Positions 2,481-20,587 of a stretch of 40,478 bases of DNA are shown here, piece after piece. How positions within the stretch are numbered: position 1 is the stretch's first letter; every line of letters begins with the position of its first letter. Position numbers and translations under genes: made by a program. The DNA is from Candidatus Omnitrophota bacterium (GTDB lineage: Bacteria; Omnitrophota; Gorgyraeia; JAFGHF01), in the NCBI GenBank assembly GCA_020341815.1, contig CP070837.1, positions 849,586 to 890,063 of the forward strand. Direction: 5' to 3'. The notes below the pieces were generated by a model. That model saw nothing but the letters and a program-made list of their open reading frames with translations, did not search any database and was not told where the DNA came from.

Positions 2481-2491
2481 CCAAGCTTATT

Positions 2492-5400: not shown

Positions 5401-8400
5401 TGACGCGCGGGGAAACTTAAAAGAAGAAAAGGTCTGGCTGTATAATCCCCTTACGCAAAGTGAAGAACTTATCCCCACAACTTATGACTATGATGACTTT
5501 GGCAACGCAATTTCCATTACCAATGCCGAAGGTAACAGCGTTACAACTAAATATGAAGATACATTTCATACATTTGCCGAGGAAGTAACCAATGCCCTTG
5601 GGCATACAGTAGAATATAATTATGACCCTGCCTTTGGCCTTGTTACTGACCTTACCGACGCCAACGGATATACTACAACCACAAAATATGATTCACTGGG
5701 TAGAGTAGTCCACACCAAGAATACATCCGGTGAAATTGTTACCAGTTATTCTTATCCTGACTTTAATACCAAGATAACCCAGCAACTAAATCTTTTAACC
5801 ACTGAACACATTGACGGCTTAGGCAGGACATATAAGACAGTCTCCAGTGGTGAAGATGGCGCAAATAGCCGCAATGTTATCACCCAGGTCTTCTATAATG
5901 AGCGGGGCTTAAAAGAAGCTGAGAGCCTGCCTCATTATGAAGGTGAAGATGAAGACAATATTTCCTATGTAAGATATGAATATGATATGCGGGGAAGGGT
6001 AAAGAAGACAACATCGGACTTCCCCGGCAGCGCCAAAGACGCCTATGCTCTAACCAGTTACATCTCCCCCTTATATACAGAGGCCCAAGACCCCAAAGGA
6101 CACAAAAAGGGTATCTTGAAAGATGTCTTTGGAAATAATATCAGAATAACAGAGTTTACCGGGGGAGGGCCTGCCTCGCCGGCAGGCGGGGTATATCACA
6201 CCAATTATAAATATGACCTTCAGGGTAATTTAAGCAAAGTTACAGACGCCAAAGGCAACATCACCCAAGTCTGGTATGATTCACTTGGCCGCAAACTAAA
6301 GATGGATGACCCGGATATGGGCGTCTGGACTTATGAATATGATAAATTAGGCAACCTGATCAAACAAACCGATGCCAAAGAGCAAACTCTCCAATTTGAA
6401 TATGACGACTTAAACCGCCTGACTAAGAAATATGCCGGATCAAAAACCTTAAGCATCTATCGCTATCGCGATGACTTAAGAAACTTGAGCTCATATACAA
6501 TTGTGACTCTGCAGGCAGAGAATAAAATCGGCCGTTTGGATGAAGTGCTTTATTTAACCGGCCGAACGGAATTCTTCTATGACTCCGAAGGAAGAGAAAT
6601 CAAATCTATCAAGTATGTTGATACCAATGCCTATAAAGTAGAGCGCACATACGATATCCTGGACCGGCTGAAGACCTTAACATATCCCGATGGAGAAGTA
6701 ATCAATTATACCTATGATACTAACTCCGGCCTCTTGGAAAAGGTCCAGGGTGAGGAAACCTATGTGCCGGATATCAGTTATAACGCCTCCGGCCAAATCA
6801 AGACTATTCAATATGGAAATGAAACAGAGACAAGCTATAATTATGGCAACGATTTGCGCCTGGAGCGCATCCTCACCAAAAATCCTACCACTTCCTTGCA
6901 GGACTTAACATATGACTTTGATAAAAACGGGAATCTCACCACCCTAACCGATAACCTAACCTCCAATATCCGCGGATACGGATATGATGATTTAGACCGC
7001 CTGATTTCTGCAGAAAATATCCCGCATTCTGCCTCTTCTCAAGGCTACACCACTCTCTGTTACCACTATGACCCCATAGGCAATATGACCTATAAGTCAG
7101 ATGCAGGAGTAATGACTTACGGCCAAAATGGCGCCGGCCCCCATGCAGTAACCTCATTACAAAGATATCAGATAACTTCCTATACCTATGATGCCAATGG
7201 CAATATGACCAATGGCAAAGATAAAGTAATGCAATATGATATAGAAAATAGACTTAGCAAGGTCGTAAAATCATCCGGCGCTACTACAGAATTTTATTAT
7301 GATGGAGATGGGGGAAGGGTAAAGAAGACCGTTGACACCACAAAGGTTACGGTGTATATTGGAAGTCTATATGAGGTTGAGCAGGGAAATATAATAACCA
7401 AACACATCTTTGCCGGCTCAAACCGCATCTGTTCTTTGAAATCTAACAATACCTCTTCCTATTACCACTCAGACCATCTTGGTTCAAGCAATGTTATCAC
7501 CGACGGAAGTGGAAACAGAATAGCCAACTATGAATATCAGCCCTATGGAAAAACATCAAAACAGACCGGCACCGATATCACCAACCACAAGTTTACCGGG
7601 AAAGAGCTTGATGATTCCACAGGCCTATACTACTATGGCGCGAGATATTATGACCCAGAGATAGGCAGGTTTATTACAGCTGATACGATAGTCCAACACC
7701 CCAACGACCCACAGGACTTAAACCGCTATGCTTATTGTCGAAACAACCCTATAAAATATGTGGATCCTACGGGGCATGGGTGGTTCAGTAAGATAATTGG
7801 GGCTATTGCCGCTGTGTTCGCCTTTATTGTCACAGGAGGACCGGCAGGAAATCCTGCTTCTGTTACGACCGCAATGGCTGTGTTCTCATCACTTGATGCC
7901 AGCATCTCAAGTTATCAGGCAGGAGCAAGCATTGGTAGGGCCATAGGAATTGGGGCTGCTTGCGGAACTGCTGCCTCTTTAGGTGGATACTTAGGTGGGA
8001 TGTTTAGTAATGCCATAGGAGGAGGTGCCTTTGGCCAACTCTTCTATGGAGCAATGGGCGCAGGCGCATTTGGAGCTGCTGCAGGCGCAGCTTTAACCGG
8101 TGGTAATGTAGGTAAGGCTGCGGCAGCAGGGGCAGCGGCAGGCGCAATTGGTGGTATGTTTGGCGCGGGAGGAAATTTCTTACTCGGTTTGGTTGGCGCA
8201 GGAGTAGCCGGCGGAACCGCCTCAAGCATCCTTGGTGAAAGCTTCGGCTCAGGCGCAGCAACAGGCGCAATTAGCTTTGTTGCCTTCTCCATAATCTCAG
8301 GTTCATTACAAGCAGCTTTGGATGCAGGGTATAGGAAAGGTGGGGTTGAGGGGAAGGTAAAGGCGGCTGAGAAAATTGCAACCTCAGCCACCTCTACAGG

Positions 8401-8644
8401 GAGCAAACACCATAACCCTTCTGATGCTTTAACTGTACAAATAGAGCCTGAAAAAATAGTTTTAGCGGAAGCAAAAAAAGAAGGTATGTCGGGTGTCTGG
8501 AAAGCATTAATCCGCCAGCTTAAAGAAAAATTGACTACACCAGATCCACCGAAAAATAAGTCTTTGCGCGAAATAGAAAGATTCATAATTGAATGGATAG
8601 ACAGATTAGGGCCATGGGTTCCATTAACTATTCAAAAAAGTTAA
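2492..8644 (+). CDS. rhs: Rhs/YD-repeat polymorphic toxin with Sec signal, Ig/cadherin-like repeats, FG-GAP (TcB-like) propeller, Rhs core and Gly-rich C-terminal toxin
   Basis: ATG 2492 gives a signal peptide ending AAEA (the track's GTG 2462 overlaps the upstream gene). Contains N-x-P-x-L/ASDPD Ig repeats, six GDFNGD-like motifs, YD repeats, FTGKELD..GLYYYGARYYDPEIGRF and NPIKYVDPTGH. Confidence 0.93.
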   Translation: MKQFFFNKNIKSIFKKTGASFLIIAHLLTFGPAAEAFQSSLGEAAIGRAESKNYIAQSGFLYATPTSSPPKLIKYIPTFIWRKGQAQPPTIDLDEYFVSPDGLPLTYTVVGDNQIGAEIDPDTKMLTFSPEPEDWEGQEKPSVFKIKAEDAEGNETTSNPFLIPKEKDKNNPPVLDYIPDISVNETELVRILPTVTKLDDDEISYSFTAPLNEQGEWFTGYDDAGDYIVTVTATDSNAIGLSHSQDVKVSVKNKNRLPILEEIADIEANEGERVVIRPQASDPDDDALTFHYSLPFDSQGKWLTGYDDADTYNITVKALDGTDTVSKQVKVTVNNVNRAPEVKLTLDSYTVTPGRNMRIQLEASDPDGDPLTFSIKKDGEEIHSGTIDDGYHCEEEPFSDIGDYIVSVTVTDPEGLSAKDTKGVDVIDPDADAEYVKPIMGDFNGDSLTDLGLYNLNKGKIEVCLSDKGVFRNTREWSNSGREHPYPGRLLPLGGDFNGDGRSDIGLYNYDTGFFYTYISSGSDFVIAGKRFRFTALPADDWQVSTGNFNGDKYTDLVFYNRSTGVVILAKGLGNGFVLDENYRWLRDKVGGSYQWVCLPGDFNGDSLTDICIFKEKTGEVRVALANANMHGFDEADLWITGFGKDIPVGNYESPMVSDFNHDGLADIGIWDDKKHKIRYVLSTGNSFRDNGNWTESFGTSDDESCHLGDFNGDAISDMACFNKEEHGIKSWSLKIASSQPADLLEEIDNGVGGKTKVTYATASEYQNEELPFPLYVTKNISSIDSLPADKPQEVYTQEFSYKGGWYDTEEREFCGFEKVTVTDPASGNYTETYFHQAKSDEKGALKGKIEKVSAYDGNGMLISEIENTWKVRSSGEESKSLGFPYLEQALTTVWEEIGTPLTTKDGFHYDIVGNIDETLSLGDIATEGDEKRSRIFYNEPYEAGFNRPKETLLKDIDGNILTRKLFTEYDARGNLKEEKVWLYNPLTQSEELIPTTYDYDDFGNAISITNAEGNSVTTKYEDTFHTFAEEVTNALGHTVEYNYDPAFGLVTDLTDANGYTTTTKYDSLGRVVHTKNTSGEIVTSYSYPDFNTKITQQLNLLTTEHIDGLGRTYKTVSSGEDGANSRNVITQVFYNERGLKEAESLPHYEGEDEDNISYVRYEYDMRGRVKKTTSDFPGSAKDAYALTSYISPLYTEAQDPKGHKKGILKDVFGNNIRITEFTGGGPASPAGGVYHTNYKYDLQGNLSKVTDAKGNITQVWYDSLGRKLKMDDPDMGVWTYEYDKLGNLIKQTDAKEQTLQFEYDDLNRLTKKYAGSKTLSIYRYRDDLRNLSSYTIVTLQAENKIGRLDEVLYLTGRTEFFYDSEGREIKSIKYVDTNAYKVERTYDILDRLKTLTYPDGEVINYTYDTNSGLLEKVQGEETYVPDISYNASGQIKTIQYGNETETSYNYGNDLRLERILTKNPTTSLQDLTYDFDKNGNLTTLTDNLTSNIRGYGYDDLDRLISAENIPHSASSQGYTTLCYHYDPIGNMTYKSDAGVMTYGQNGAGPHAVTSLQRYQITSYTYDANGNMTNGKDKVMQYDIENRLSKVVKSSGATTEFYYDGDGGRVKKTVDTTKVTVYIGSLYEVEQGNIITKHIFAGSNRICSLKSNNTSSYYHSDHLGSSNVITDGSGNRIANYEYQPYGKTSKQTGTDITNHKFTGKELDDSTGLYYYGARYYDPEIGRFITADTIVQHPNDPQDLNRYAYCRNNPIKYVDPTGHGWFSKIIGAIAAVFAFIVTGGPAGNPASVTTAMAVFSSLDASISSYQAGASIGRAIGIGAACGTAASLGGYLGGMFSNAIGGGAFGQLFYGAMGAGAFGAAAGAALTGGNVGKAAAAGAAAGAIGGMFGAGGNFLLGLVGAGVAGGTASSILGESFGSGAATGAISFVAFSIISGSLQAALDAGYRKGGVEGKVKAAEKIATSATSTGSKHHNPSDALTVQIEPEKIVLAEAKKEGMSGVWKALIRQLKEKLTTPDPPKNKSLREIERFIIEWIDRLGPWVPLTIQKS

Positions 8645-8654
8645 TTGGAAGGAT

Positions 8655-9050
8655 ATGATAATGTTTAAGCAAAATATTGGAATAGCCTTATTAAGTTGGT
8701 TTATAATAATTTTTGCTATTATAAATAGCATAACGGCTACGATTGGAATCTACCTGTATTTGACTAACTCTTCGGAAGGCATATCGCTATTTTTAGTAAT
8801 GTTAAGAGCTGTGTTTGCAATTGCATTTTTTATTCTAGGGATTGAAATTATAAAATTGCGCCTTTGGGCGCGGATGATAACTATAGCAACAGCAAGTATT
8901 TTTTTAATCTTTGATTGCATAAAAATAATATTAAAAGCTAGCTTACAACAACTTTCCGATAAATTTATTTTCATAATTATTAGTATGTGTATAAATTTAA
9001 TTATTATTTATTTCTTGAATAAGCCTAGCGTAAAGGAACAGTTTAAATAG
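8655..9050 (+). CDS. Putative membrane immunity protein (3-4 TM) for the Rhs C-terminal toxin
   Basis: Starts 10 bp after the rhs stop, RBS GGAAGG, AT-rich, hydrophobic. Confidence 0.7.
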   Translation: MIMFKQNIGIALLSWFIIIFAIINSITATIGIYLYLTNSSEGISLFLVMLRAVFAIAFFILGIEIIKLRLWARMITIATASIFLIFDCIKIILKASLQQLSDKFIFIIISMCINLIIIYFLNKPSVKEQFK

Positions 9051-9115
9051 AACGCCTATTTTTATTAAGTAGTAAAAAGGGGCGATCTACTCTCTTAACA
9101 TAACCCTAACACCAC

Positions 9116-9142
9116 TAAAAAAAGCGCCTAGCGCTTTTTTTA
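9116..9142. terminator. Bidirectional intrinsic terminator
   Basis: TAAAAAAAGCGC-CTA-GCGCTTTTTTTA, a perfect 12-bp inverted repeat downstream of the immunity gene. Confidence 0.75.
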
Positions 9143-9431
9143 TTAAATATCTTCTAAAGAGACAAATATCAATATAAGAATCAGCGATATGAATATTTAG
9201 AACATAGTATATATTGAGAAAAATAAATTTGAATCAAAACTTAAAATTGACAACTGGCAGAAAGGGATATCTGACAATTAGGATAGATTATTTGAAATCG
9301 CTTGTATCCCCTTAAGTTACTGAGTTCAAAATCCTAAGATTATCTTATAAAAAGTGGAATATAATATATAATGCGTAAAATTTGTTCATATTTAATATAT
9401 ATGGTATCTTTTCTTTTTTTTCATTTTTACA

Positions 9432-9469
9432 AACATTTCCTTGACAAATGTTATCATTTATTCTATTCT
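9432..9469 (+). promoter_or_regulatory. Sigma70 promoter with an operator-like inverted repeat over the -35
   Basis: TTGACA 9441-9446, 17 bp, TATTCT 9464-9469; AACATTT (9432-38)/AAATGTT (9446-52) inverted repeat. Confidence 0.6.
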
Positions 9470-9498
9470 AGAAAGAAAATTAATGGAGGTGTATAAAA

Positions 9499-10389
9499 AT
9501 GGAAAGTAAGGATTATTTAAAAGATTTTTTTGTTGAAGACGAACACAGCTTTAAAAAGGAACAAATTATTTCTTTAATTAGTAGATGTAAAAAATTTGCT
9601 AAACTTGTAGGTAGAAAAGGTCAAGTACACATCGAAAAGAAAAATTTAACAGGTACAGATAAAATTAAACTTCTTTTAGCAACTCGTTATTTAGGCGCGG
9701 AGTTAGCTAAATTGGAACCCGGACTAAAAATTTCTCCAGAAATTGCGAATGTTCATACCGCTGATATAGCAAAGTTATTATCTGTGTCAGATGATAATGC
9801 CCGAACTAGAGTATCAGATTTAATCCATGAAAATTTTGGTAAAAAACCGGAAAAGGGATATATTCGTATATATCCACATCATATTAATAAGTTTTTAGAT
9901 ATGCTTGAAAAAGAAGAACAAAAAAAGGAAAGAACTTTCAGTAAACAATCTTCAAGTAAGAAAAAAAAGAAGGGGGCCTTGGAGGATAAAAAAGTAAATA
10001 TAGACCAAATATTTAAGCGTTTATCTACACATTTAAATATCACAGAAAGGGTTCTTCAAGATTATATATTTATTAAAGATGATGGAAGTTTTAAATTTAA
10101 TAACTATTTTACCGGTAAGTCGAAGCACAATAAACAGAGTAAAGGAATTTTAAGTACAGCGTTTGTTATAGTTATAGGATTAGGTGCGACAACTTTTTCT
10201 AGTTGGCAGGTAAAAAAAGTTTGTTTTAATAGTAATATCGATGTAACTGGTCTAAATTATACAATAAGAGAATTAAAAAATGGTGGATATATATCTAAGG
10301 CTAATAAATATTCTCGAGATAATATAATTTTAGAAAAAGGTAAAAATAAAGCAAGAGAAATATTTAACGAATTGTGTAATATAAAATGA
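9499..10389 (+). CDS. Hypothetical protein with winged-HTH-like segments
   Basis: RBS GGAGG; TADIAKLLSVSDDNARTRVSDL HTH-like motif; second wHTH-like segment near the C-terminus; AT-rich. Confidence 0.6.
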   Translation: MESKDYLKDFFVEDEHSFKKEQIISLISRCKKFAKLVGRKGQVHIEKKNLTGTDKIKLLLATRYLGAELAKLEPGLKISPEIANVHTADIAKLLSVSDDNARTRVSDLIHENFGKKPEKGYIRIYPHHINKFLDMLEKEEQKKERTFSKQSSSKKKKKGALEDKKVNIDQIFKRLSTHLNITERVLQDYIFIKDDGSFKFNNYFTGKSKHNKQSKGILSTAFVIVIGLGATTFSSWQVKKVCFNSNIDVTGLNYTIRELKNGGYISKANKYSRDNIILEKGKNKAREIFNELCNIK

Positions 10390-11168
10390 TAAATGAGTTT
10401 ATTCAAGAATATTTCGATATTGTCAAATTTTCTAAAGCCCATAAAAAATATATAAGGGGCAATAAATCAAAACGGCGCCTAAGTGATTTTTATGAAAAAA
10501 GTTGGTTGCCATATTCGCGAAATTTTGAAAAAATATTTGGCAAAAAAGATCATGACATCATAGAAGGGGCTCTATATTCAATTTATAAGCTCTGCAAAAA
10601 AGATTTTATTGAGAAAAAAAGGATAAAATCTATACTTAATTTGACAACGCCAACTATCGAGAATATAAAACTAAATTTAATTAGGGACTTTGGATTTATA
10701 ATCGAAAGAGGACAAAAAGAAAATATTATAGAGATATTAAAAAATGCTGGTTTTGAAAGTACCATTATATATATTGAGGATGCAGAAAATGATTTTAAGA
10801 ATGGTAAATCGAAATCAACATGTACAAATACTAGACATGCTATAGACGAATTCTTTAGAGAATTTAGAGAAAAAGTATTTAAAAAATCTATTTCGGGAGT
10901 AACTGCATCAGAACATATAGCAGCCTTAAATAATAAACTTAAAATTCCAACATCTGAACAATCTTTATTGAAAAATGGTATATATGTTTTCTTAAGTCAT
11001 AAAGGTGGACATGGAACAACCGATAGACCTTCATTAGAAGACGCAAAATTATCAATAAATCTTATCTATATTTGTTTTGAATATTTTTTAAATAAATATA
11101 ATAAATATTTCAATAAAACTAAAGAAACAAATCCATTTTTTGCTGCGCCATTCAAATTCAACTTATAA
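10386..11168 (+). CDS. Hypothetical protein with an Abi_C/HEPN-like C-terminal domain (possible defence effector)
   Basis: ATGA overlap with the upstream gene; AENDF..STCTNTRHAIDEFF..FLSHKGGH..EDAKLSINL pattern resembles helical HEPN/Abi_C folds (inference). Confidence 0.5.
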   Translation: MINEFIQEYFDIVKFSKAHKKYIRGNKSKRRLSDFYEKSWLPYSRNFEKIFGKKDHDIIEGALYSIYKLCKKDFIEKKRIKSILNLTTPTIENIKLNLIRDFGFIIERGQKENIIEILKNAGFESTIIYIEDAENDFKNGKSKSTCTNTRHAIDEFFREFREKVFKKSISGVTASEHIAALNNKLKIPTSEQSLLKNGIYVFLSHKGGHGTTDRPSLEDAKLSINLIYICFEYFLNKYNKYFNKTKETNPFFAAPFKFNL

Positions 11169-11213
11169 AAATTCCAAAACTAAAAGTTCTTTTATTTTCA
11201 TAGGGAGGTTCAT

Positions 11214-11477
11214 ATGACCGAAGAAGTGGGATATGGGGTATTTCGAAATATTCACCCAAGCGAAACAGGTAAAAGAGTTACGCTTCACAAATTACCTTGT
11301 CATCATTATAAGCAACACTTAAAAAAAGGAACAGCAAAAGCAAAAGGGATGTATACATTCCACAAAGACTGCAGGACCTTTCAAGAAGCAGTGGAAAGGG
11401 CTTCTCTCGAGTCTTTAGAATGGCATGCACCAATTAAAGTTTGCAAAGGTTGTCTTAAGAATTGGAATCTTGTTTAA
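11214..11477 (+). CDS. Small His/Cys (possibly Zn-binding) hypothetical protein
   Basis: RBS GGGAGG; LHKLPC..VCKGC motif. Confidence 0.6.
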   Translation: MTEEVGYGVFRNIHPSETGKRVTLHKLPCHHYKQHLKKGTAKAKGMYTFHKDCRTFQEAVERASLESLEWHAPIKVCKGCLKNWNLV

Positions 11478-11572
11478 CTCCAGTAGATTATTAAAAATTT
11501 TTTCAAAATTTCTCTTGACAAATAGTGTAATATAATGTATAAGTATATGTGTAGACAAAATGAGAGGAATTT

Positions 11573-11752
11573 ATGTCGGAACAAGAGGCCATTAGAAAAT
11601 TAAAACAGCTAAAAGAAAAATATACTCTGCATGACCTGGTGAAACATTTAGACATCCAACAGACTACTTTACACCGCTGGCTTAAGACAGGCAAGATCTC
11701 CAAGAATATGGCCGACCTCTTAGAAAGAAGAATCCGGGAAAAGAACCTCTAA
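11573..11752 (+). CDS. 59-aa Cro/XRE-like HTH protein (absent from the ORF track)
   Basis: RBS GAGGA; translation MSEQEAIRKLKQLKEKYTLHDLVKHLDIQQTTLHRWLKTGKISKNMADLLERRIREKNL; TTGACA at 11515. Confidence 0.75.
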   Translation: MSEQEAIRKLKQLKEKYTLHDLVKHLDIQQTTLHRWLKTGKISKNMADLLERRIREKNL

Positions 11753-11766
11753 TTTTTTTTACCCTC

Positions 11767-11786
11767 TACTTCACAATTGTGTAGTA
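11767..11786. promoter_or_regulatory. 20-bp palindrome, candidate operator
   Basis: TACTTCACAATTGTGTAGTA (one mismatched pair), between the HTH gene and the ATPase-recombinase genes. Confidence 0.45.
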
Positions 11787-11805
11787 AATAATGAAGGGAA
11801 AAGCT

Positions 11806-11967
11806 ATGATACATTTACACTTCAACCGCCGCAGACCCTTAGGACTTAACAAGCTTCTTTATGCTCAGGCCCTTGGTTTGATTATAAAGAAGCTCTTGGG
11901 CCTTAAAAGGTTGATAAGGCGCCTGGGGCTGGAGATAGAGCTTGACTGCAAAATCATCTTCAAATAG
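11806..11967 (+). CDS. Small basic hypothetical protein (53 aa)
   Basis: RBS GAAGGGA; MIHLHFNRRRPLGLNKLLYAQALGLIIKKLLGLKRLIRRLGLEIELDCKIIFK; fills the gap before the ATPase. Confidence 0.45.
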   Translation: MIHLHFNRRRPLGLNKLLYAQALGLIIKKLLGLKRLIRRLGLEIELDCKIIFK

Positions 11968-11977
11968 GGCTAAAGAG

Positions 11978-13102
11978 ATGGATAAGGCTAAAGAACTGTT
12001 AAAGAATGGTGATATATTAAAGCAGGTTATCCGGGATATGGATATCTTAGGATATGTAGGGGAAGAGGAAAATAAGATATTGGGCTATTTAATAGCTATC
12101 TCCCGCAAGCTTGATCAGCCCCTTTCCGGTATCGTGGTCTCCTCATCCGGGGCAGGGAAAAGCAGGCTGGTGGATACGTTAGAGCAGCTTACTCCAGCTG
12201 AGGATGTAGTCTTTACCTCAAGGCTTACTTCACAGTCTCTTTACTATATGCAGAAGGACTTCCTAAGGCATAAGCTTCTGATAGTAGAGGAAAGGCACGG
12301 CTCTGAGCTTGCTGACTATCCCATCAGGACATTACAGTCAAAGGGTGTGCTTTCCCTGGCGATACCTATTAAGAATAGGACGGTCTTCTTTGAAGTAAAG
12401 GGGCCGGTAAGTATCTTAGAGACTACCGTCTCCTGTAAGCTTAACTTAGAGAACACATCGCGCTGCTTTATCCTGCACCTGGATGAATCAGAGGAACAGA
12501 CCCGGCTTATCCACAGATACCAGAGACAGGCCAGGACTAAAGAGAGGCTTAAACTGCAGCAAAAGGCTCAAGGCATCATCAGGCTGCACCAGGATATGCA
12601 GAGGCTGATTAAGCCCTGCGCGGTAATTATTCCTTATGCCAATAAGTTAACCTTTCCCGCAAACAGTCCTTCATCCAGGCGTGAACATCAGAAATTTCTC
12701 ACCCTCATTGAGGCAATAGCCCTGTTATACCAATACCAGAGAAGAAAGATTGTCCACAACGGCTTAGTCTTCATTGAAAGCGCTATTCAGGACTATGAGA
12801 TTGCCTTTGATATATTCAGCAAGGTTTATCGGGATACATTGCTGACGCATCACTCCAAATCGGCTGTCTTGCTGGCTAAGATACTAAGGCTGAAGAAGTC
12901 TGTCTTTAGCAGGGAAGATATAGCTAAGTTCAGCGGCTGGCCTAATTATAAGGTAAGGGATAATATCAGATATTTAGAAGAGGCCGGGATATTAAGGATT
13001 ATCCGCAACGGAAAGGGAAAGAGAACTCTATATAAGCTGAATAGCCATCTTAAGCTGACCAAACCCGAAGAACTAAGAAAAAGAGGCACTTCTACAAGTT
13101 AA
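11978..13102 (+). CDS. AAA+/MCM-like P-loop ATPase with C-terminal wHTH (helicase-like module of primase-type integrative elements, without CHC2/Toprim)
   Basis: GYVGEEENK..SRKL..Walker A SSGAGKS, Walker B LLIVEE, SR arginine finger, C-terminal HTH (SREDIAKFSGW..VRDNIRYLEEAG). ATG 11978 preferred over TTG 11942. Confidence 0.75.
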   Translation: MDKAKELLKNGDILKQVIRDMDILGYVGEEENKILGYLIAISRKLDQPLSGIVVSSSGAGKSRLVDTLEQLTPAEDVVFTSRLTSQSLYYMQKDFLRHKLLIVEERHGSELADYPIRTLQSKGVLSLAIPIKNRTVFFEVKGPVSILETTVSCKLNLENTSRCFILHLDESEEQTRLIHRYQRQARTKERLKLQQKAQGIIRLHQDMQRLIKPCAVIIPYANKLTFPANSPSSRREHQKFLTLIEAIALLYQYQRRKIVHNGLVFIESAIQDYEIAFDIFSKVYRDTLLTHHSKSAVLLAKILRLKKSVFSREDIAKFSGWPNYKVRDNIRYLEEAGILRIIRNGKGKRTLYKLNSHLKLTKPEELRKRGTSTS

Positions 13103-13106
13103 GCTT

Positions 13107-14774
13107 ATGATAACAAATAAGTTACCTTCAGTTAAAGAGCTCATTAGGCAATATCAGGATTACCTTGCCAGTAAAGAAGCCGGGGGAGTAAGATATCTTT
13201 CCGTGCTTAAATATCTAACCGAATATACGGAAAGAGCCGATATAAAAGATATAGCCTTAATCAATGAAGAAAGTCTGCTTGAATTTCAGCTATATCTTTA
13301 TGATGAATATGACTTTACCTTTGAGACGGTAAGAACGATGTTTTACACCTTAAAGAGGTTTTTCGCTTATCTGATGGAAAATAACCTGATTAAGGAGAAT
13401 CTTCTTTATAAGGTAGAAATTATCCCCAAACCCCAACCTAAGAAAATCATCAGCCGTTATTATTCCTTTGATGAGCTGATTAGTAGATACCTCAACTATA
13501 GAAAAAGCCACCTAAGCTACGGCTATCTTATCCAGGTAGAAAAACATTTAAAAGGATATTTTCGTTATTTAAGAGGTAAAGGCATAAAAAGCGTTTATTC
13601 TGTTACTGAAGGAAGCCTCTTAGAATACAGAGACTTCCTCTGGCAGGAATATGAGCAGGGAGAAAAGGACTCTCTTATGCCTGAGAGCCAGATTGAGCGC
13701 TTAGGCACTGTTTGCCGCTTCTTCAGATATTTATATAAGGAAGGCCTGTTAAGAGATAATCCCGCTCTTAATCTGGCCTGGAAAGACTACTTCCATAAAT
13801 TACGCCAGAGGCCTAAGAAAAGCAAGGAGATAAAGGCAGTAACTTCACCCCTGGATGAATTGAAGCAGAAGTTTATCGATTATGAAAAGACCAAAGGAAA
13901 GTCATTAAGTACACTCTCCAGTTACAAAAAAGGCCTGGAGGTCTTCTTTGGATATATGCAAAGCAAAGGCCTAAGCAGCATGGCCCAGATAGGCAAGAGA
14001 CATCTTATGGAATACTATCCTTACCTTTATAATTACCGCGGCATTAGAAATTACCCGGTAGGTATGCAGTCCAAGGCCAAGTATCTCTGGGCCTTGAGGT
14101 TATTCTTTAAGTTCCTGATCCGCTTTGATTATCTGCCTTATGACGCTTCATTTGACTTAGAGCCCATCAAAGAGGAAAAGCCTCTTCCTAAGGATTACCT
14201 TAATCAGAAGGAAGTGTTTTATCTTTTGAATCAGCCTGGATCATCGGATTCCTTGAGTATCCGTGATAAGGCAATACTTGAAGTACTATTCTCAACAGGT
14301 ATGCGCAACAATGAACTCTGCCAGCTCAATATCGCTGATATAGACTTCCAGCAGGAAATGGTCAGGGTCAGTCATCCTAAAGGAGGCAGCAGCCGCCAGA
14401 GAATAGTCCCTGTAGGCCAGAGAAGCCTTAATTATCTAAATAGTTATTTAGCAAAAGCCCGGCCTGAGCTGGCAAATGGTGACCCTCAGGCCTTATTTTT
14501 GTCCTACTCCGGCAAGAGGATTAAAACCGAAGCTGTGTTAAACATTGTTAAAAAGTATGCCTTTCGATGCGGCTTCCGAAAGAATATCACCCCGCATTCC
14601 CTGCGAGTTACCTGCGCCACTCTTATGCTGAAATACAAGGCCGGCCTAAGATATGTCCAGGAGCAGTTAGGCCACAGGAGCATCCGCTCAACTCAAATAT
14701 ATACCCGGCTTATTCCTTTGGACCTGAAACTGGTCCATCAGAGATGTCATCCGGGGGAGAGAATAGACAGATGA
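13107..14774 (+). CDS. XerC/D-family tyrosine recombinase with three tandem SAM-like core-binding domains
   Basis: Catalytic residues TGMRNNE (R), PKGG (K), HSLR, LGH, TQIY; three repeats ending RFFAYL/RFFRYL/LFFKFL. Confidence 0.92.
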   Translation: MITNKLPSVKELIRQYQDYLASKEAGGVRYLSVLKYLTEYTERADIKDIALINEESLLEFQLYLYDEYDFTFETVRTMFYTLKRFFAYLMENNLIKENLLYKVEIIPKPQPKKIISRYYSFDELISRYLNYRKSHLSYGYLIQVEKHLKGYFRYLRGKGIKSVYSVTEGSLLEYRDFLWQEYEQGEKDSLMPESQIERLGTVCRFFRYLYKEGLLRDNPALNLAWKDYFHKLRQRPKKSKEIKAVTSPLDELKQKFIDYEKTKGKSLSTLSSYKKGLEVFFGYMQSKGLSSMAQIGKRHLMEYYPYLYNYRGIRNYPVGMQSKAKYLWALRLFFKFLIRFDYLPYDASFDLEPIKEEKPLPKDYLNQKEVFYLLNQPGSSDSLSIRDKAILEVLFSTGMRNNELCQLNIADIDFQQEMVRVSHPKGGSSRQRIVPVGQRSLNYLNSYLAKARPELANGDPQALFLSYSGKRIKTEAVLNIVKKYAFRCGFRKNITPHSLRVTCATLMLKYKAGLRYVQEQLGHRSIRSTQIYTRLIPLDLKLVHQRCHPGERIDR

Positions 14775-14906
14775 TACGGCCTAACTTCTTGAAATCAAGA
14801 GAGGTTTTGTGCTTTACTTTTGATATTGGCTGGCGTACAATAATCCTAAGGGAATTTATACCCGGAATTTACTGGGATAAAAAGAAGAAGTGGAGGAAAT
14901 AGAAGG

Positions 14907-15257
14907 GTGAATATTAAAGAAAAAAGAGGTATCGCATTAATCTCCGTTTCAATAATCGCTATCTTTATTTTTAGTATTTTTCGGGGAGTAAAAACTTTTT
15001 CAAATATTGAAGATTATATAGATAGCTATATGTATATGAAGGCTTCAAAATTTAAGTTAATTTTAGCAACAATTGTAGAAGCGTGTGCTTTATTTATACT
15101 ATTATTTAGGGACAAATTTTCTGAAAAAATGGCAGCAAAAAGTAAAAAATATTCAATTGGGTATTACAAATTAGCTATTACTTTAATGCTTAGTTACGTT
15201 CTTCTAATAAGCATAATACATAAGTCATTTATATTATACTTACTAATGGGTTACTAA
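14907..15257 (+). CDS. Small membrane protein (about 3 TM), likely orphan immunity gene
   Basis: GTG start, AT-rich, hydrophobic; resembles the other immunity genes in size and context. Confidence 0.5.
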   Translation: MNIKEKRGIALISVSIIAIFIFSIFRGVKTFSNIEDYIDSYMYMKASKFKLILATIVEACALFILLFRDKFSEKMAAKSKKYSIGYYKLAITLMLSYVLLISIIHKSFILYLLMGY

Positions 15258-15432
15258 AACTTCTAAGAATAAAAACATAAATGGGCCAACAGCACAGCAA
15301 AATATCAAAAAGTAGAGCAATAATGGTCGAAAAGTCGGGAAAAATCAGGGAAATCAGGGAGCGCAATACCTGTTTCCTTGACATTTCAAATTTCCAAACC
15401 GAAATTTTGGAATTTAACATAGTAGAATAAAT

Positions 15433-15520
15433 CTACAGCTAAAAAGTTAGATATTTTAGCGTAGGTAGTCAATTTTAGCTCTTTGTCAAAGCAGAAGTCC
15501 AACACTCCGCCCAAGAGTGT
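15433..15520 (+). repeat. 88-bp att-like repeat, copy 1
   Basis: 85/88 identical to 17342..17429; contains GCTAAAA-N9-TTTTAGC plus a third TTTTAGC; ends at T|GACCC of the Rhs core. Confidence 0.92.
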
Positions 15521-16429
15521 GACCCGGAGCTCGGTCGCTTTATCACCGCCGACACCATTGTCCAGGCTCCCTATGATCCGCAGAGCTTAAACAGATATGC
15601 CTATTGCAGGAATAACCCCATCAAGTACGTTGATCCAACGGGGCATAGTTGGTTTAAAAAGTTTTTTAGTAAAATAGCAGGTTTTTTTGCTGCCGTTATA
15701 ACTTTTGCCGGCACAGGCGGCAATGCAGCTGCTGCCTTTACTGCCTTTAATGTTGTCGATACCTTCTTTAGTGGTGCTCGAGCAATTGCACATGGTGCTC
15801 CTCCTGGTAGAATCTTTGCTGCAATAGGAATATCTCTTACTTTAAATACAATAATTCCTTTTCCTGATATAGGAAATCTGGCTTTACAATTAACAGTTGC
15901 AGCAGCCAGAGGCGCTTTTATATCTGTTGCCACTAATGCTATCATTAACAAAGGCGGAAAACTTGGGTCCGCTGCCGCCTGGGGTGCTGGAATGGGCGCT
16001 GTATCTGGATTTCTTGGATCCCAACAGTATCAGAATTGGCGAAAAGGCAAAGGATTTGTGTCAAATAAACAAGCTGATGCAAGACGAAAGGCTAGAAATA
16101 GCGCTAGAACAACATCGGGTTCTGTTAAGATAAAAAAATCTTCTGATGGGCGCGCGCAAGACAGCTTAGAAGTAAATGAAGGAAGAATAGTGATAGCAAG
16201 AGGAGATAAAAGCCATGTCGTTGAAGGAGCTAAAGCTGCGGGCAAGGCGGCAGCAGACACCATTACAGGCGTCCCTGCATTTGGAGCCGTAGAGATAGCT
16301 GGCGAAATGGCAAAGACACTCCCTAAGGTTATGGAACGTAATCAAAGGATGTATGAAGAATATGAAGAAAGTGGATTAGGAGAAATATTTGGGCCTAATC
16401 CATGGAAAGACCTTCCTCGTAGTAAATAG
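15521..16429 (+). pseudogene. Silent Rhs C-terminal cassette 1 (no start codon; core DPELGRF..YVDPTGH plus toxin tip)
   Basis: Open frame of 302 codons starting DPELGRFITADTIVQAPYDPQSLNRYAYCRNNPIKYVDPTGH; the track ORF 15992..16429 is only its 3' half. Confidence 0.88.
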
Positions 16430-16481
16430 GAATTTTTTTAACGATTGATTGTACAATATATACTTTTAAGATTTTAAGAAA

Positions 16482-17306
16482 ATGCGTTCTGTAAAAGTTA
16501 AAAGAATATTTTTAACCATTGCATTACTTGTGATTTTATCATGGGTAACAAGTTTTGTTTACCATTTCATAATATTTATTCATGCTCGGAACACTCTGAG
16601 AAAAATATTTATTGAAGGTGTTCTTACTGAAATTGATCAAATTGATCTTTTGCATAAGAAAGGAATTCCTGCGACAAGCCTATTGATTGGTTTGTTAAAA
16701 GATGATAATGATTTAGTGAAAATAAATGCGATGGTTTTACTTGCAGAATTTGAAAGTCATGAAGCTGCACCATCACTAGCTAAATTATTAAAAAGCGATA
16801 ATTGGCGTGTTAGGTTTTTTGCCTCCCATGCGCTGGGTAGAATAAGCGATAAAGGAACAGTGGATAGCTTGGCAAAGGCTTGGTTGGAAGAAAACGATTT
16901 AAGAGTGGCCAGAGAAATTGCAATAGCGGTAGGCAAAATAGGGGATAAAAAGGCAGCTCCAGCCTTTATAAAAACATATAAAGATAAAGATGAAAAAATT
17001 AAAATACTATCCTCATTAATTCTATATAAATTGCTAAGTAAAGAAGGATACTTTAATGATATAAAAGAAGCAATCCATAATAAAGATGACAAGCTGAGAC
17101 TTATGACAGTTTGGACGCTTGGAGAGATAGAAGACCAAAGAATAATTCCTTTGTTAGAAGAAGCTCTAGTAGATAGTAATCAAAAAGTTAGGGAATTTGC
17201 ACAGAAATCAATCGAAAAAATAAATAGTAAAGTAAGCAACAATAACACACGGAAATCCGATGAAATCGAAATCAGGAAACAAGATATTAATTTCCTGAAT
17301 AAATAA
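16482..17306 (+). CDS. N-terminally membrane-anchored HEAT-repeat protein, putative immunity for cassette 1
   Basis: TM helix, then repeated LLKD..VR..A..ALG.I HEAT motifs; directly follows toxin tip 1. Confidence 0.75.
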   Translation: MRSVKVKRIFLTIALLVILSWVTSFVYHFIIFIHARNTLRKIFIEGVLTEIDQIDLLHKKGIPATSLLIGLLKDDNDLVKINAMVLLAEFESHEAAPSLAKLLKSDNWRVRFFASHALGRISDKGTVDSLAKAWLEENDLRVAREIAIAVGKIGDKKAAPAFIKTYKDKDEKIKILSSLILYKLLSKEGYFNDIKEAIHNKDDKLRLMTVWTLGEIEDQRIIPLLEEALVDSNQKVREFAQKSIEKINSKVSNNNTRKSDEIEIRKQDINFLNK

Positions 17307-17341
17307 GAAACGATATCCATTTTATTAAGAAGGTAATAATC

Positions 17342-17429
17342 CTACAGCTAAAAAGTTAGATATTTTAGCGTAGGTAGTCCATTTTAGCTCTTTGTCAAAG
17401 CAGAAGTCCCACACTCCGCCCAATAGTGT
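17342..17429 (+). repeat. 88-bp att-like repeat, copy 2
   Basis: Offset 1909 from copy 1; three substitutions, one of which makes an in-frame TAG just before the cassette. Confidence 0.92.
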
Positions 17430-18422
17430 GACCCAGAGATAGGCAGGTTTATTACTGCTGATACCATAGTCCAAGATTCGTCTGACCCCCAGAGCTTAAA
17501 CAGATATGCCTATTGCAGGAACAACCCCATCAAATATGTGGATCCTAGTGGGCATTTTTTCCAGATAATTCTCGGAGCCATCATTGGGGCAATCATCGGG
17601 GTAGCAGTTTCAGCAGCTACAGGTGGTGACATAGGAAAGGGAGCCATCACAGGTGCAATTGGTGGTGCCTTCTTTGGCTTCGTAGGAGGATTTAAACTCT
17701 CAGGAGTAGTTAAAGCTCTTGCCCATACCTGGGCAGGGGCAGCATCAGGAGCATTAGGTGCCATTGCTACTGGTGGCGATGTAGGCATGAGCGCCCTGAT
17801 AGGAGGGGCGGCTGCAGGTGTTACCTGTGGTATAGCTAATGTCATTCCGGGTTTTAAAGGAGATGGCTTAGGTGCCTTCCTTGGCAACCTTGTCCTTCGT
17901 AGCGGTATTGGAGCTGCAATTGGAGGTGGTATTTCCTCAGCCACAGGTGGAGATTTCGCCTATGGAGCAAAACAGGGGGCTATAAGTGCAGGGATTGCAT
18001 ATACGGCTAATTGCGGGTTGAGTAAGGTCTTGCATGGAGACAAAGAATCAAAACTCGCTTCTACTCAAGAAGAAGTCGACAAGATTGCTTGGCAACGTAA
18101 GCACGATCCTAATATGAGAATGGGAGGATGGCCTATTTATACTGATAAAGGGCCCAGCAAAACTTATACTTTGGGCGATTTGGTTAGCTGGAAAACTTGG
18201 ACAGGAGTAATTTTAATAGGAGCTGGTGGCAAAATAATGTTTGCACCTGTTCCTGGTGCTCGTTTAGTCGGTGGTGTAATGATTCTTGGAGGAGGAGCAC
18301 TGACTGCTTGGAGTATGATAGAAAGCACTAAAACAGCACATGATTTAGCTACCGATATAGGAGAAATTGCAACTGAACAATATAAAGAAGAATGGGAAGA
18401 AATTGATAATAATTTGAAATAA
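17430..18422 (+). pseudogene. Silent Rhs C-terminal cassette 2 (core DPEIGRF..YVDPSGH, glycine zipper, hydrophobic-hairpin tip)
   Basis: Open frame starting DPEIGRFITADTIVQDSSDPQSLNRYAYCRNNPIKYVDPSGH; the track's GTG 17538 is the V of YVDP, not a real start. Confidence 0.88.
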
Positions 18423-18473
18423 ATAATGATATTATTGTAAGAACAAGAGCCTCTTTTGTAGGAGGGGAAGAAA

Positions 18474-18785
18474 ATGGAATTAACCGAAAAAGATAAAACA
18501 TTTATTACCTATTATCAGAACCAATATAGAATTTATATATTCTTTTTTGTATTTATATTTTTATTCGCTAGTTTTCAACTATATATGTTATTTGGAAAGT
18601 TTATTCCTATCTATACTGCAGCCTTTCAAAAGACACCCAAGTTAAGTACTTTTGTCCAATTCGGCTTGATAAAAATGGCGGTATTCAATTTGATATGGAT
18701 TGCTCTATTAATTGGAGCATTAATAGGAAGTTTTTCCAGCTATAAGAAAACTAAATCAATAATAAATAAATTGATGAAATCATAA
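18474..18785 (+). CDS. 2-TM putative immunity protein for cassette 2
   Basis: RBS GGAGG, two hydrophobic segments, AT-rich, follows the toxin tip. Confidence 0.7.
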   Translation: MELTEKDKTFITYYQNQYRIYIFFFVFIFLFASFQLYMLFGKFIPIYTAAFQKTPKLSTFVQFGLIKMAVFNLIWIALLIGALIGSFSSYKKTKSIINKLMKS

Positions 18786-18838
18786 AAAGGGGGCAGTTCC
18801 AATCCTTAGTCTAATCAGGGGACACAATACTAATTTCC

Positions 18839-18867
18839 TTGACAAAGATGGAAGAAAAAGCTAAAAT
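18839..18867 (+). promoter_or_regulatory. Sigma70 promoter of the transposase, probably leaderless
   Basis: TTGACA-17 bp-TAAAAT; ATG lies 6 nt downstream with no RBS. Confidence 0.6.
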
Positions 18868-18873
18868 CCATCT

Positions 18874-19536
18874 ATGGCAAGAATAGCGAGAGTCGTTGTT
18901 CCTGAATTCCCTCACCACATAATCCAAAGAGGCAATCGTCGGCAGAAAGTATTCTTCAATGAAGATGACTATAGCCAATATCTTAGATTGCTCAATACTT
19001 ATTCGCATCAATTTAAGGTAGATATTCTGGCTTATTGTTTAATGCCTAACCATATACACCTTATCGCAACTCCCCATGAGGATAGAAGCCTGGCTCAAGC
19101 CATAGGCGAAACCCACCGTAATTATACAAGGTTTATTAATTTTAGAGAAAACTGGCGGGGATATCTCTGGCAGGGAAGATTCTCATCATATGTTCTTGAC
19201 GAAAGGTACTTATTGGCTGCAACCCGGTATATACTTTTAAATCCTGTAAAAGCAAAATTGGCAAAGAAGCCATGGGATTATGAATGGTCAAGCACCAAGC
19301 ATCATATGATGATAGATAATGACTCTTTGGTAAAAGATAGCCTTTTAAAAACACTTGTAGAAAATTGGAAAGATTTTCTTAATGCCGCATCGCCCGATGA
19401 GGACGTCCGGTTGTTTCAACTACATGAAAGAACGGGACGCCCCTTAGGAGATAATACATTTATAGAAAAACTGGAATCTCTTCTCAAGATAAATCTTAAA
19501 AAGAAGAGAGCGGGGCGGAAGAAAAAAGAGAAATAG
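18874..19536 (+). CDS. REP-associated tyrosine (HUH, Y1_Tnp) transposase
   Basis: PHHIIQRGNRRQ, YCLMPNHIHL (HUH), LWQGRF, YILLNPVKA, WSS motifs. Confidence 0.93.
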   Translation: MARIARVVVPEFPHHIIQRGNRRQKVFFNEDDYSQYLRLLNTYSHQFKVDILAYCLMPNHIHLIATPHEDRSLAQAIGETHRNYTRFINFRENWRGYLWQGRFSSYVLDERYLLAATRYILLNPVKAKLAKKPWDYEWSSTKHHMMIDNDSLVKDSLLKTLVENWKDFLNAASPDEDVRLFQLHERTGRPLGDNTFIEKLESLLKINLKKKRAGRKKKEK

Positions 19537-19576
19537 GTATTGTGTCCCCGTTTTGCTATAAAAATAAGGGGGGAAT

Positions 19577-20587
19577 GTGTCATGTTCTTTAAGCGTCTCT
19601 AGAAATTTTTTTAATTATTATTTTGTCAAATGGGGATTGAAAGAAAAAAGCCGGTTAACTCTCAATACTCATCCTGACCCAATCCTTTTTAATATAAATG
19701 TTGATCAGGTAAAATATAACAAAGGCTTGCTTAAGTCTATATTTAGATTGGTGAAAGAAAAAAAGATTAAATATTATGCGGATACGAATAAAATTTTAGT
19801 ATATAGTCAGGATAGGAAACATAGTAAGGAAATCGATTTAGACATCGATACTTTAGAAACAGTTGAGAAGATATTGTCTTGTAGCAAGAAATTTGAGGAT
19901 ATCGAACATAATTTATTTATGGTAGAGCTGGACAATAACTTAAAATTCTTAATACGAAAAGTTCCTGTAGCAGACATTGTAACATTGAAAGAAACTATAG
20001 TTAATGAGGAATATGCTTTTCTTTATCCTTACATAGAAGGGGAAACAGTTCTTGATATCGGCGCATATATAGGCGATACTTCGATTATGTTTTGTTTAAA
20101 GGGTGCTAAGAATGTAGTGGCATATGAACCGGACCCCCTCTTGTTTAATTTATGCACAAGGAATATCAATTTGAATAATATGGCATCAAAAATTGAGGTA
20201 AGGAACTATGGTGTAAGCGATAAAGAAAGTCTTATTAATAAGAAAGGGTATAGTTTTGTAAAACCTGAACTTTTATTTGATAAGGAAAGACATTCTGTTG
20301 CCAAGGAAATAGAGATGAAAATATTATCTTTTTCAAAAGTCATCGAACAAATGAAGGAAATAGACGTGCTTAAAATGGATTGTGAAGGTGCAGAGTTCCC
20401 GGCAATCATTTCTACTCCCCCTTATATTTTGAAGAGAATAAAAGCAATTGGCATGGAATGCCATGCCAATCCTGAACCTTTAATCGATTATCTAAAAAAA
20501 GCTGATTTCAAAGTTGAGATTAAAAAAGAAATGAAAACTCAAGATAGATATTTGACAATTTTGTTTGCTGTGCAGGAAGATAACTAA
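19577..20587 (+). CDS. FkbM-family SAM methyltransferase (start uncertain)
   Basis: VLDIGAYIGD, VVAYEPDP, IDVLKMDCEGAE, MECH motifs. Confidence 0.85.
   Translation: MSCSLSVSRNFFNYYFVKWGLKEKSRLTLNTHPDPILFNINVDQVKYNKGLLKSIFRLVKEKKIKYYADTNKILVYSQDRKHSKEIDLDIDTLETVEKILSCSKKFEDIEHNLFMVELDNNLKFLIRKVPVADIVTLKETIVNEEYAFLYPYIEGETVLDIGAYIGDTSIMFCLKGAKNVVAYEPDPLLFNLCTRNINLNNMASKIEVRNYGVSDKESLINKKGYSFVKPELLFDKERHSVAKEIEMKILSFSKVIEQMKEIDVLKMDCEGAEFPAIISTPPYILKRIKAIGMECHANPEPLIDYLKKADFKVEIKKEMKTQDRYLTILFAVQEDN

Follow-up and report, generated by a model that had tools for sequence, protein, structure and literature searches.

The systems closest to the one described here come from several fields. In attachment sites of the lambda type (attP), short arm sites are repeated tens of base pairs from the point of exchange and are read by a non-catalytic part of the integrase or by a helper protein. 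Integron arrays carry attC sites, dyad-rich repeats of ~90 nt with a bulged hairpin, among their cassettes, giving n + 1 sites with attI included. P4-like satellites are small integrative elements with an integrase, a primase-helicase and a Cro-like regulator. We compare these and other systems with a locus in a 40,478-nt stretch of a Candidatus Omnitrophota genome (contig CP070837.1, positions 849,586 to 890,063 of the forward strand; "the window" below, in whose coordinates positions are given), where each of two copies of an 88-bp repeat adjoins a displaced end of an Rhs toxin gene, downstream of a tyrosine recombinase gene.

Rhs loci are themselves known for C-terminal displacement, i.e., an intact rhs gene followed by start-less "orphan" tips which carry the core end and have immunity genes, as set out in Jackson 2009 (PMC2935791) and Steele 2017 (PMC5727410). 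Tip arrival and displacement have so far been explained by homologous recombination, with the delivery step unknown. PMC2935791 explicitly states that an integrase partner for tip displacement is missing, and Steele 2017 (PMC5727410) notes Rhs-linked integrase-like genes and leaves their role open. Zhang 2012 notes XerC/D beside polyimmunity loci, and Kawano 2007 (PMC1891008) draws SymE-cHTH-primase-helicase islands beside RHS genes. The rAID arrays of Bacteroidales were defined by Ross 2019 (bioRxiv 10.1101/471110) and a 2025 preprint (see also PMC12247911); one criterion is a recombinase at least 44% identical to BF9343_RS08045 (bioRxiv 10.1101/471110). Another is a set of at least two co-oriented downstream genes of ≤41% GC with repetitive intergenic motifs, and the window shows this arrangement (35-42% GC between 15 and 20 kb). 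In the full-text literature outside subscription journals, we found no description of primase/recombinase elements inserting at the Rhs core end.

Our central proposal, which we rate somewhat above an even chance, is that the 88-bp repeat represents the non-coding, integrase-proximal arm of junctions of the attR type, left by a tyrosine-recombinase integrative element that targets the conserved Rhs core end. The repeat and its parts are as follows:

15433-15520, plus strand: copy 1 of the 88-bp repeat, the arm at the junction with displaced tip 1 (sequence comparison)
15433-15464, no strand: dyad 1, CTAC-A-GCTAAAA / TTTTAGC-GTAG, containing boxes 1 and 2 (inspection, folding)
15473-15479, plus strand: box 3, TTTTAGC (word search)
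15502-15520, no strand: dyad 3, ACACTC-CGCCCAA-GAGTGT, directly at the Rhs junction (inspection)
17342-17429, plus strand: copy 2 of the 88-bp repeat, also an arm (sequence comparison)

Copy 1 lies 660 nt downstream of the recombinase gene's stop codon and ends at the Rhs junction, the first Rhs codon being GAC at 15521. Dyad 1 opens with CTAC-A-GCTAAAA (15433-15444, box 1), continues through the 9-nt spacer AGTTAGATA (15445-15453) and closes with TTTTAGC-GTAG (15454-15464, box 2), making a hairpin of 11 pairs with one bulged A. Box 3 has the same direction as box 2, lies 19 nt after it, and is linked to the Rhs codons by GCAGAAGTCCAACACTCCGCCC. The box consensus can be extended to a 9-mer, WTTTTAGCK. 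Further symmetry is found in a palindrome, CTTTGTCAAAG, at 15481-91 and in the dyad ACACTC-N7-GAGTGT at 15502-20. The two copies differ only at 15471, 15501 and 15515, all outside the boxes, and two of the three copy-2 substitutions move the ACACTC/GAGTGT dyad outward by one pair, leaving it with six pairs. A first-pass annotation, made from the letters of the window, had placed the three boxes exactly in copy 1, and the same three recur in copy 2 (17347-53, 17363-69 and 17382-88). It had also remarked that no copy-2 substitution touches a box, which is true but uninformative, because the 21 box positions would all be spared by three substitutions placed at random with a probability of 0.44-0.46.

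The repeat is conserved as a whole block of 88-93 nt with a sharp change at both edges. Between the two copies there are 3 differences in the 93 nt of repeat vs 25 in the 121 nt of adjoining Rhs codons (Fisher p = 1.4e-4; 19 of the 25 at third codon positions), and the 50 nt upstream of the repeats cannot be aligned (32 differences in register). The arrangement GCTAAAA-N9-TTTTAGC is confined to the two repeats within the 40-kb window, where TTTTAGC as such is not enriched (17 matches vs 15.9 expected). None of 300 mononucleotide shuffles of the 100-nt repeat held one 7-mer three times (in either orientation), and for the 120 nt before the junction this happened in 9/500 (copy 1) and 2/500 (copy 2) dinucleotide shuffles. 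Folded as a single strand, the repeat is more stable than its shuffles, with z of -2.8 to -3.3 as RNA and -3.5 to -5.3 as DNA. Searches with blastn found no homologous 88-bp repeat among plasmids or, among the matches listed, in the 80 related loci described below. Two candidates were rejected: a 10-nt match to the repeat within the HTH gene (11605-11614) is attributed to chance (E = 2.8), and iterations of GAAATC upstream of the arms cluster at copy 2 alone.

The interval 7651-15520 (or to 17429) looks like an integrated element, and we read the Rhs gene from 7651 on, i.e., the core end plus the current toxin tip, as its left end. Its genes and those around it are as follows:

2462-8644, plus strand: intact Rhs toxin gene, 2060 aa (Pfam RHS_repeat, TcdB_toxin_midN, FG-GAP)
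7651-7677, plus strand: candidate exchange (core) region on the attL side, encoding (Y)DPEIGRFIT, identical to 17429-17455
8655-9050, plus strand: 131-aa product without a family, candidate immunity gene for the current tip (position only)
9499-11168, plus strand: two cargo open reading frames (ORFs), function unassigned and no family, in a stretch of 26-28% GC (ORF list, family searches)
11573-11752, plus strand: 59-aa helix-turn-helix (HTH) protein (weak Pfam matches: HTH_23 8e-4, HTH_17 0.011)
11942-13102, plus strand: 386-aa P-loop and winged-helix protein (Atlas structure matches, homologues)
13107-14774, plus strand: 555-aa tyrosine recombinase, three tandem SAM-like domains and then an XerD-like catalytic domain (Pfam)
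14907-15257, plus strand: 116-aa ORF between recombinase and arm, with the look of a small helical or membrane protein (Atlas; no family)
15521-16429, plus strand: displaced tip 1, Rhs core end and toxin domain, with no start codon before 15992 (ORF reading, homology)
16482-17306, plus strand: HEAT-repeat protein, candidate immunity protein for tip 1 (Pfam HEAT_2 2e-26)
17430-18422, plus strand: displaced tip 2, with a glycine-zipper-rich toxin domain and an in-frame TAG directly before it (sequence, searches)
18474-18785, plus strand: candidate immunity gene of tip 2, 103 aa (position only)

Homology of the intact Rhs gene with the orphan tips begins at 7645. Its core-end 133 nt (7645-7777) recur at 15514-15646 (71% identity) and 17423-17555 (82%), and the gene shares with the latter a 27-nt perfect run (7651-7677 = 17429-17455) over the codons (Y)DPEIGRFIT. 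A perfect run of 35 nt occurs at the same YDPEIGRFIT motif in a related locus, L002; the chance probability is ~0.09 for the 27-nt run and ~0.02 for the 35-nt run. The core copy in the gene and copy 1 are 7869 bp apart. In both downstream copies an arm abuts the Rhs homology; the intact gene has none, which gives two arms for two displaced tips. We call the tips displaced because tip 1 is found elsewhere on full-length Candidatus Omnitrophota Rhs proteins, P0121 (61% identity, 64% coverage) and P0122 (51%, 77%). The locus thus has start-less tips with core-end homology and candidate immunity genes of their own, downstream of an intact rhs gene, as orphan tips are described. There is no tRNA gene in the window that might serve as an attachment site, and a search for direct repeats bounding 9.05-15.4 kb, as classical att duplicates would, gave only short AT-rich matches. 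Directly upstream of the Rhs gene stand two tandem paralogous genes (24-1256 and 1272-2480; 410 and 402 aa, no family), which are 91% alike over the first 526 nt and 95% alike over the last 41 nt.

The proposed mechanism is as follows. The mobile element would consist, in order, of ..YDPEIGRF.. DNA with a new tip, an immunity gene, cargo, the small HTH protein, the P-loop replication protein and the recombinase, and finish with the arm. The element would recombine with the YDPEIGRF motif in a resident rhs gene (Campbell-type integration), so that the resident gene acquires the element's tip, and the old tip, now start-less, would be left downstream, immediately behind the arm. The window would then be a record of two such events, which is our proposed reason for its two arms and two displaced tips. 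The anatomy, the contrast in conservation and, as described below, the recurring layout, one circular contig, one circular plasmid record and an occupied and an empty site in E. coli are observed; site-specific exchange in the window and the binding of a protein at the boxes are inferred.

At 41-83 bp from the likely exchange region, the boxes are within the sole non-coding arm; the first-pass annotation had put them about 40-80 bp from the exchange point. The three WTTTTAGCK boxes would be the best candidates for accessory (arm-type) sites. Their reader could be the recombinase, through its two extra SAM-like domains, or else the small HTH protein, and they would set the specificity and direction of the recombination complex. 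Such sites would have to sit in the integrase-side arm, because the opposite arm is a variable, toxin-coding tip. Like arm sites elsewhere, the boxes are in element DNA beside the exchange region and next to the integrase gene, a placement shared by the arms of at least six of the related loci listed and of E. coli, and they form a repeated consensus distinct from the core. Judged from its sequence context, a role for the boxes as putative accessory sites is credible. The arm-type reading in the first-pass annotation therefore stands in part: it gains from the recombinase-adjacent position in the sole non-coding arm, the extra SAM-like domains and the recurrence of such junctions, and it loses from boxes no better kept than the whole repeat, from the want of a triple box in all six related arms searched and from box-free promoters.

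The recombinase has an unusual build for a tyrosine recombinase, with two extra tandem SAM-like domains (13107-13870) ahead of the core-binding and catalytic domains. Its C-terminal 300 residues are XerD-like (profile match to PDB 1a0p at 1e-57; 251.5 bits against the NCBIfam XerD model, below the cut-off of 329.6), and its first 250 residues make up the two additional domains, which are of the core-binding type. SAM-like domains 1, 2 and 3 match one another at E = 3e-8, 7e-7 and 2e-4, and domain 1 matches Pfam SAM_5 and the solved integrase N-terminal domain 3nrw (8e-6). The relatives comprise ~40 full-length proteins at 33-64% identity and one at 97%, those with names being from Candidatus Omnitrophota. 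P0001 is the relative at 97%, P0002 has 64% identity and P0003-P0026 have 44-56%; P0007, P0011 and P0012 have one more SAM-like copy, i.e., three extra. The extra domains could be candidates for reading additional sites. The 59-aa HTH protein may be a regulator or an excision helper. Two promoter-like regions, 9423-9466 and 11497-11540, resemble each other at 73% over 44 nt (TTGACAAAT..., with a good -10). The first stands ahead of the low-GC cargo ORFs and the second ahead of the genes for the HTH, replication and recombinase proteins, and they may be shared operators.

The 386-aa protein is the C-terminal P-loop and winged-helix module of mobile-element primase-helicases, with Atlas structure matches (TM 0.81-0.86) to Toprim/MTBMA_p00010 proteins. 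Its C-terminal winged helix matches phrog_186 (DnaD-like, 1.3e-5) and, weakly, FaeA; a comparison with phages gave no match.

Loci of related organization were sought with one profile scan of genome contigs, using the recombinase alignment, which returned at least 80 loci with distant XerC/D-like genes. Among the matches listed, the best recombinase is 38% identical, over the C-terminal half; in 21/80 loci the gene immediately upstream of the recombinase encodes a homologue of the 386-aa protein, at 32-43% identity; and Rhs core-end fragments are present in 9 of these 21 vs 4 of the 59 others (p = 4.6e-4). In the 21 loci, the homologue usually forms the end of a larger protein, a DnaG-type primase-helicase (920-1040 aa). 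At least six loci (L002, L004, L005, L025, L039, L051) have an Rhs-end fragment that shares the strand of the recombinase and starts <1.5 kb downstream of it. The layout recurs in at least six loci from other phyla, with the backbone order taken from Pfam: Rhs end with tip and immunity gene, Cro-like HTH gene, then a primase-helicase gene followed by one or two recombinase genes, a non-coding arm (90-300 nt) and the Rhs-end fragment of another tip.

In L004, two tandem units have backbones which are 96% alike until 47 nt beyond the junction, after which the tips differ. In L006, an arm of ~190 nt is 94% alike between units with backbones only 76% alike. Both loci have another conserved non-coding block near the HTH/primase genes. 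The L008 contig, which carries Rhs-end fragments, a primase-helicase and an integrase, repeats 127 nt exactly at its ends and is therefore a 7985-bp circle. Downstream of the second L004 unit (14178-14947) is a group II intron remnant (reverse transcriptase/maturase ORF, Rfam Intron_gpII). In L017 (11966-12843), L024 and L032, primase/integrase units of 7.1-8.1 kb are duplicated exactly in tandem (99.9%) and show no detectable Rhs fragment, and in L017 a YwqJ-like deaminase domain directly follows the integrase, so related elements may target other polymorphic toxin genes.

Enterobacterial relatives add a circular record and an empty site. L082 is an 8758-bp circular Shigella plasmid record with primase, xerC, ISEc1, SymE and HTH genes. 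Its primase-xerC segment is found in 56 of 5426 complete E. coli genomes, at 200 places, all chromosomal (median 4 per genome). E. coli EC77 (L083/L084) has four tandem ~8.8-kb units after the core of a vgrG-linked rhs gene and before pptA, each in the order tip, immunity, SymE, HTH, primase, xerC, ORF and RHS fragment (75-87 nt), and one of these units matches the plasmid colinearly (98.2% over 8657 nt). E. coli KCJ3K291 has the same flanks (ansP ... vgrG, rhs ... SymE, pptA) and an intact rhs gene with no unit; identity between its rhs gene and that of EC77 ends at the core end. Over their last 135 nt, the four E. coli arms agree at 92-98.5%; for the xerC genes the figure is 73-93%. The primase and xerC genes of two EC77 units are frameshifted. 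The ORF at the place of the window's 116-aa ORF in the E. coli units has no similarity to it.

Several findings weigh against an Rhs-targeting element. The core copy beside arm 1 is only 73% identical to that in the gene, so the most recent event was not a simple exchange between gene and arm 1; the perfect run is with copy 2, and could also be explained by gene conversion (or by chance, at ~0.09). The three Rhs-end copies are mosaic, from which it follows that homologous recombination also acts in the window. Either the mobile unit is 7651-17429 with an older cassette inside, or gene conversion has reshaped the copies. The second unit (15521-17429), behind arm 1, has no recombinase, replication or other backbone genes, and is thus a non-autonomous cassette or a deletion product. 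Concerning the boxes, there are only two copies of the repeat, in which they are no better conserved than the remainder, and the element's two promoter regions, possible sites of HTH action, have no box. The recombinases of the related loci are only 29-38% identical to that of the window among the matches listed, which makes the analogy with them a distant one. Their arms cannot be aligned with the window arm; excess repeated 7-mers or a triple box were found in none of six arms (two from E. coli, L004, L006, L002, L025), and a fold excess in neither of the two folded (L004, L006). The three-box design is thus apparently particular to the lineage of the window. Finally, L014 has 10 short cassettes without any non-coding arm. 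We take this betaproteobacterial locus to be a different, arm-less kind of orphan array: its ten cassettes (L014:900-9050) lie upstream of the recombinase, and each starts from an invariant TACAACTACTTCCGCGAT.ACGA, a 24-nt stretch of Rhs codons (YNYFRDYE/D).

The mosaic copies and the arm-less L014 cassettes would suit a passive repeat, i.e., a duplicated junction of 221 bp homogenised by gene conversion, with RecA-dependent tip exchange in the 133-bp homology and boxes that are AT-rich chance. This fits the lack of window-wide TTTTAGC enrichment, and it also accords with the published model of orphan activation, namely homologous recombination and C-terminal displacement (PMC2935791; PMC5727410). 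We nevertheless consider it unlikely. Conservation shifts sharply at both edges of the 88-93 nt, the arm is kept better than the recombinase gene in L006 and E. coli too, and triple boxes are rare in shuffles. Moreover, the L008 circle, the circular plasmid record and the empty E. coli site point to an element that excises and integrates.

The repeats could instead be recombination sites in an integron-like array, recombining arm with arm (perhaps as folded single strands), such that the recombinase captures and excises cassettes of Rhs end, tip and immunity gene, as in integrons or rAID arrays. The recombinase gene is upstream of the array in the same orientation, the repeats are near-identical between unrelated cassettes, the cassette behind arm 1 has no backbone genes, and the repeat, with its bulged hairpin, folds better than shuffles when treated as single-stranded DNA (the z of -3.5 to -5.3 given above). 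In rAID arrays as described (bioRxiv 10.1101/471110), an XerD-like recombinase is likewise accompanied by repetitive intergenic motifs. However, the two cassettes come with two repeats, the last cassette (to 18785) having none behind it, where an integron would have n + 1, and the intact gene has a perfect core but no repeat. Related tandem arrays have full backbones between their arms, and the L004 and L006 arms have no fold excess. The recombinase scores 84.6 bits with the integron-integrase model TIGR02249 (cut-off 265) and 42.7 with PRK15417 (cut-off 435). Integron-like capture is therefore, in our estimation, quite unlikely.

A third possibility is that the boxes serve another function: replication-origin iterons bound by the winged helix of the 386-aa protein, an HTH operator, or a structured RNA or insulator before a silent tip. 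The winged-helix matches to phrog_186 and FaeA, the grouping of the 386-aa protein with primase-helicase replication proteins, the constraint on the whole repeat rather than the boxes, and the significant fold z-scores would all fit. We rate this as very unlikely, since the backbone-less unit retains its repeat despite having nothing to replicate with, the promoter regions (9423-9466 and 11497-11540) are box-free, and the conserved non-coding block near the HTH/primase genes in L004 and L006 is a better candidate for an origin or operator. Rfam has no match in 8500-20000 at E up to 1, nor in the arms of L004, L006, L008, L082 and L083. The repeat has no promoter-like or terminator-like site on the plus strand; on the minus strand there is a weak promoter/terminator-type match (9/12) at 15501-15472.

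A REP-like hairpin processed by the IS200-type (RAYT-like) Y1 transposase encoded 1.4 kb downstream (18874-19536; Pfam Y1_Tnp 3e-14; NCBIfam REP_Tyr_transpos 72.9 bits, below the cut-off of 80) is highly improbable: CTAC/GTAG flank the hairpin, GTAG being a tetranucleotide typical of E. coli REPs, and a different 35-nt motif is shared by the flanks of the RAYT gene and the DNA ~50 nt upstream of each arm, but within the 40 kb examined the hairpin is found at the two Rhs junctions only, the repeat always ends at the same Rhs codon, and the RAYT flanks carry that different motif, GGGGACACAATAC. A REP sequence would be expected in many dispersed copies, some of them beside the RAYT gene. The 35-nt motif, AATCAGGG.ACACAATAC..ATTTCCTTGACA, has four copies: one ~50 nt upstream of each arm (15349-15383 and ~17266-17300, the latter overlapping the end of the HEAT gene) and two inverted copies flanking the RAYT-like gene (18811-18844 and, on the minus strand, 19528-19549). 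The promoter of this gene (18839-18874) is near-perfect (TTGACA-17-TAAAAT), with a -10 that overlaps a GCTAAAA word, and its ATG follows the -10 by only 6 nt, as would suit a leaderless transcript.

We thus return to an element that attaches at the Rhs core end. If this is right, an element attaching at the toxin gene itself would supply both delivery and displacement, and would also explain ordered orphan arrays. Direction and specificity would then be determined at the boxes, since the site has just one arm that can evolve freely. Even if the boxes are irrelevant, the repeat marks the end of the element and is useful for annotation. The proposal can be tested directly in E. coli isolates with tandem copies, and a circular copy is already deposited as the 8758-bp Shigella plasmid record. 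More tentatively, and at rather less than an even chance, we suggest that widespread small integrative replicons, from Omnitrophota to E. coli, attach at the Rhs core end, re-arm the toxin and archive the old tip, which would give C-terminal displacement a site-specific mechanism, and that in the lineage of the window the two to three extra recombinase domains read the three boxes.

Each of the known systems resembles the window in part. As in lambda-type attP, putative short repeated sites lie near the exchange region, in element DNA beside a tyrosine integrase gene. The window differs in having one arm, the other side being toxin-coding, and in that its extra recombinase domains are SAM-like (core-binding type) rather than of the lambda arm-binding type. 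Like the attC repeats of integron arrays, the repeat here is well kept, rich in dyads and ~90 nt long, may fold into a bulged hairpin, and stands between unrelated cassettes near a tyrosine recombinase gene. The differences are a number and placement of sites at odds with an integron, a recombinase of a type other than IntI, and exchange that apparently falls in Rhs codons.

With rAID arrays, the window shares an XerD-like recombinase followed by co-oriented, low-GC orphan cassettes with repetitive intergenic motifs. However, rAID arrays are stand-alone immunity-gene arrays, whereas the module here is inside an rhs locus with a full tip and a replication protein, and it belongs to another lineage, its named homologues being from Candidatus Omnitrophota. 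Concerning P4-like satellites and the Kawano islands, the E. coli relatives carry SymE and HTH genes exactly as drawn for the latter. Here, in contrast, attachment is at a toxin gene's end, the element brings a replacement tip, and only the P-loop/winged-helix part of the primase-helicase is retained. Rhs C-terminal displacement is matched in part too: the window has start-less tips with core ends and their own immunity candidates behind an intact rhs gene, and it differs in having a recombinase/replication module and a conserved arm between that gene and the displaced tips.

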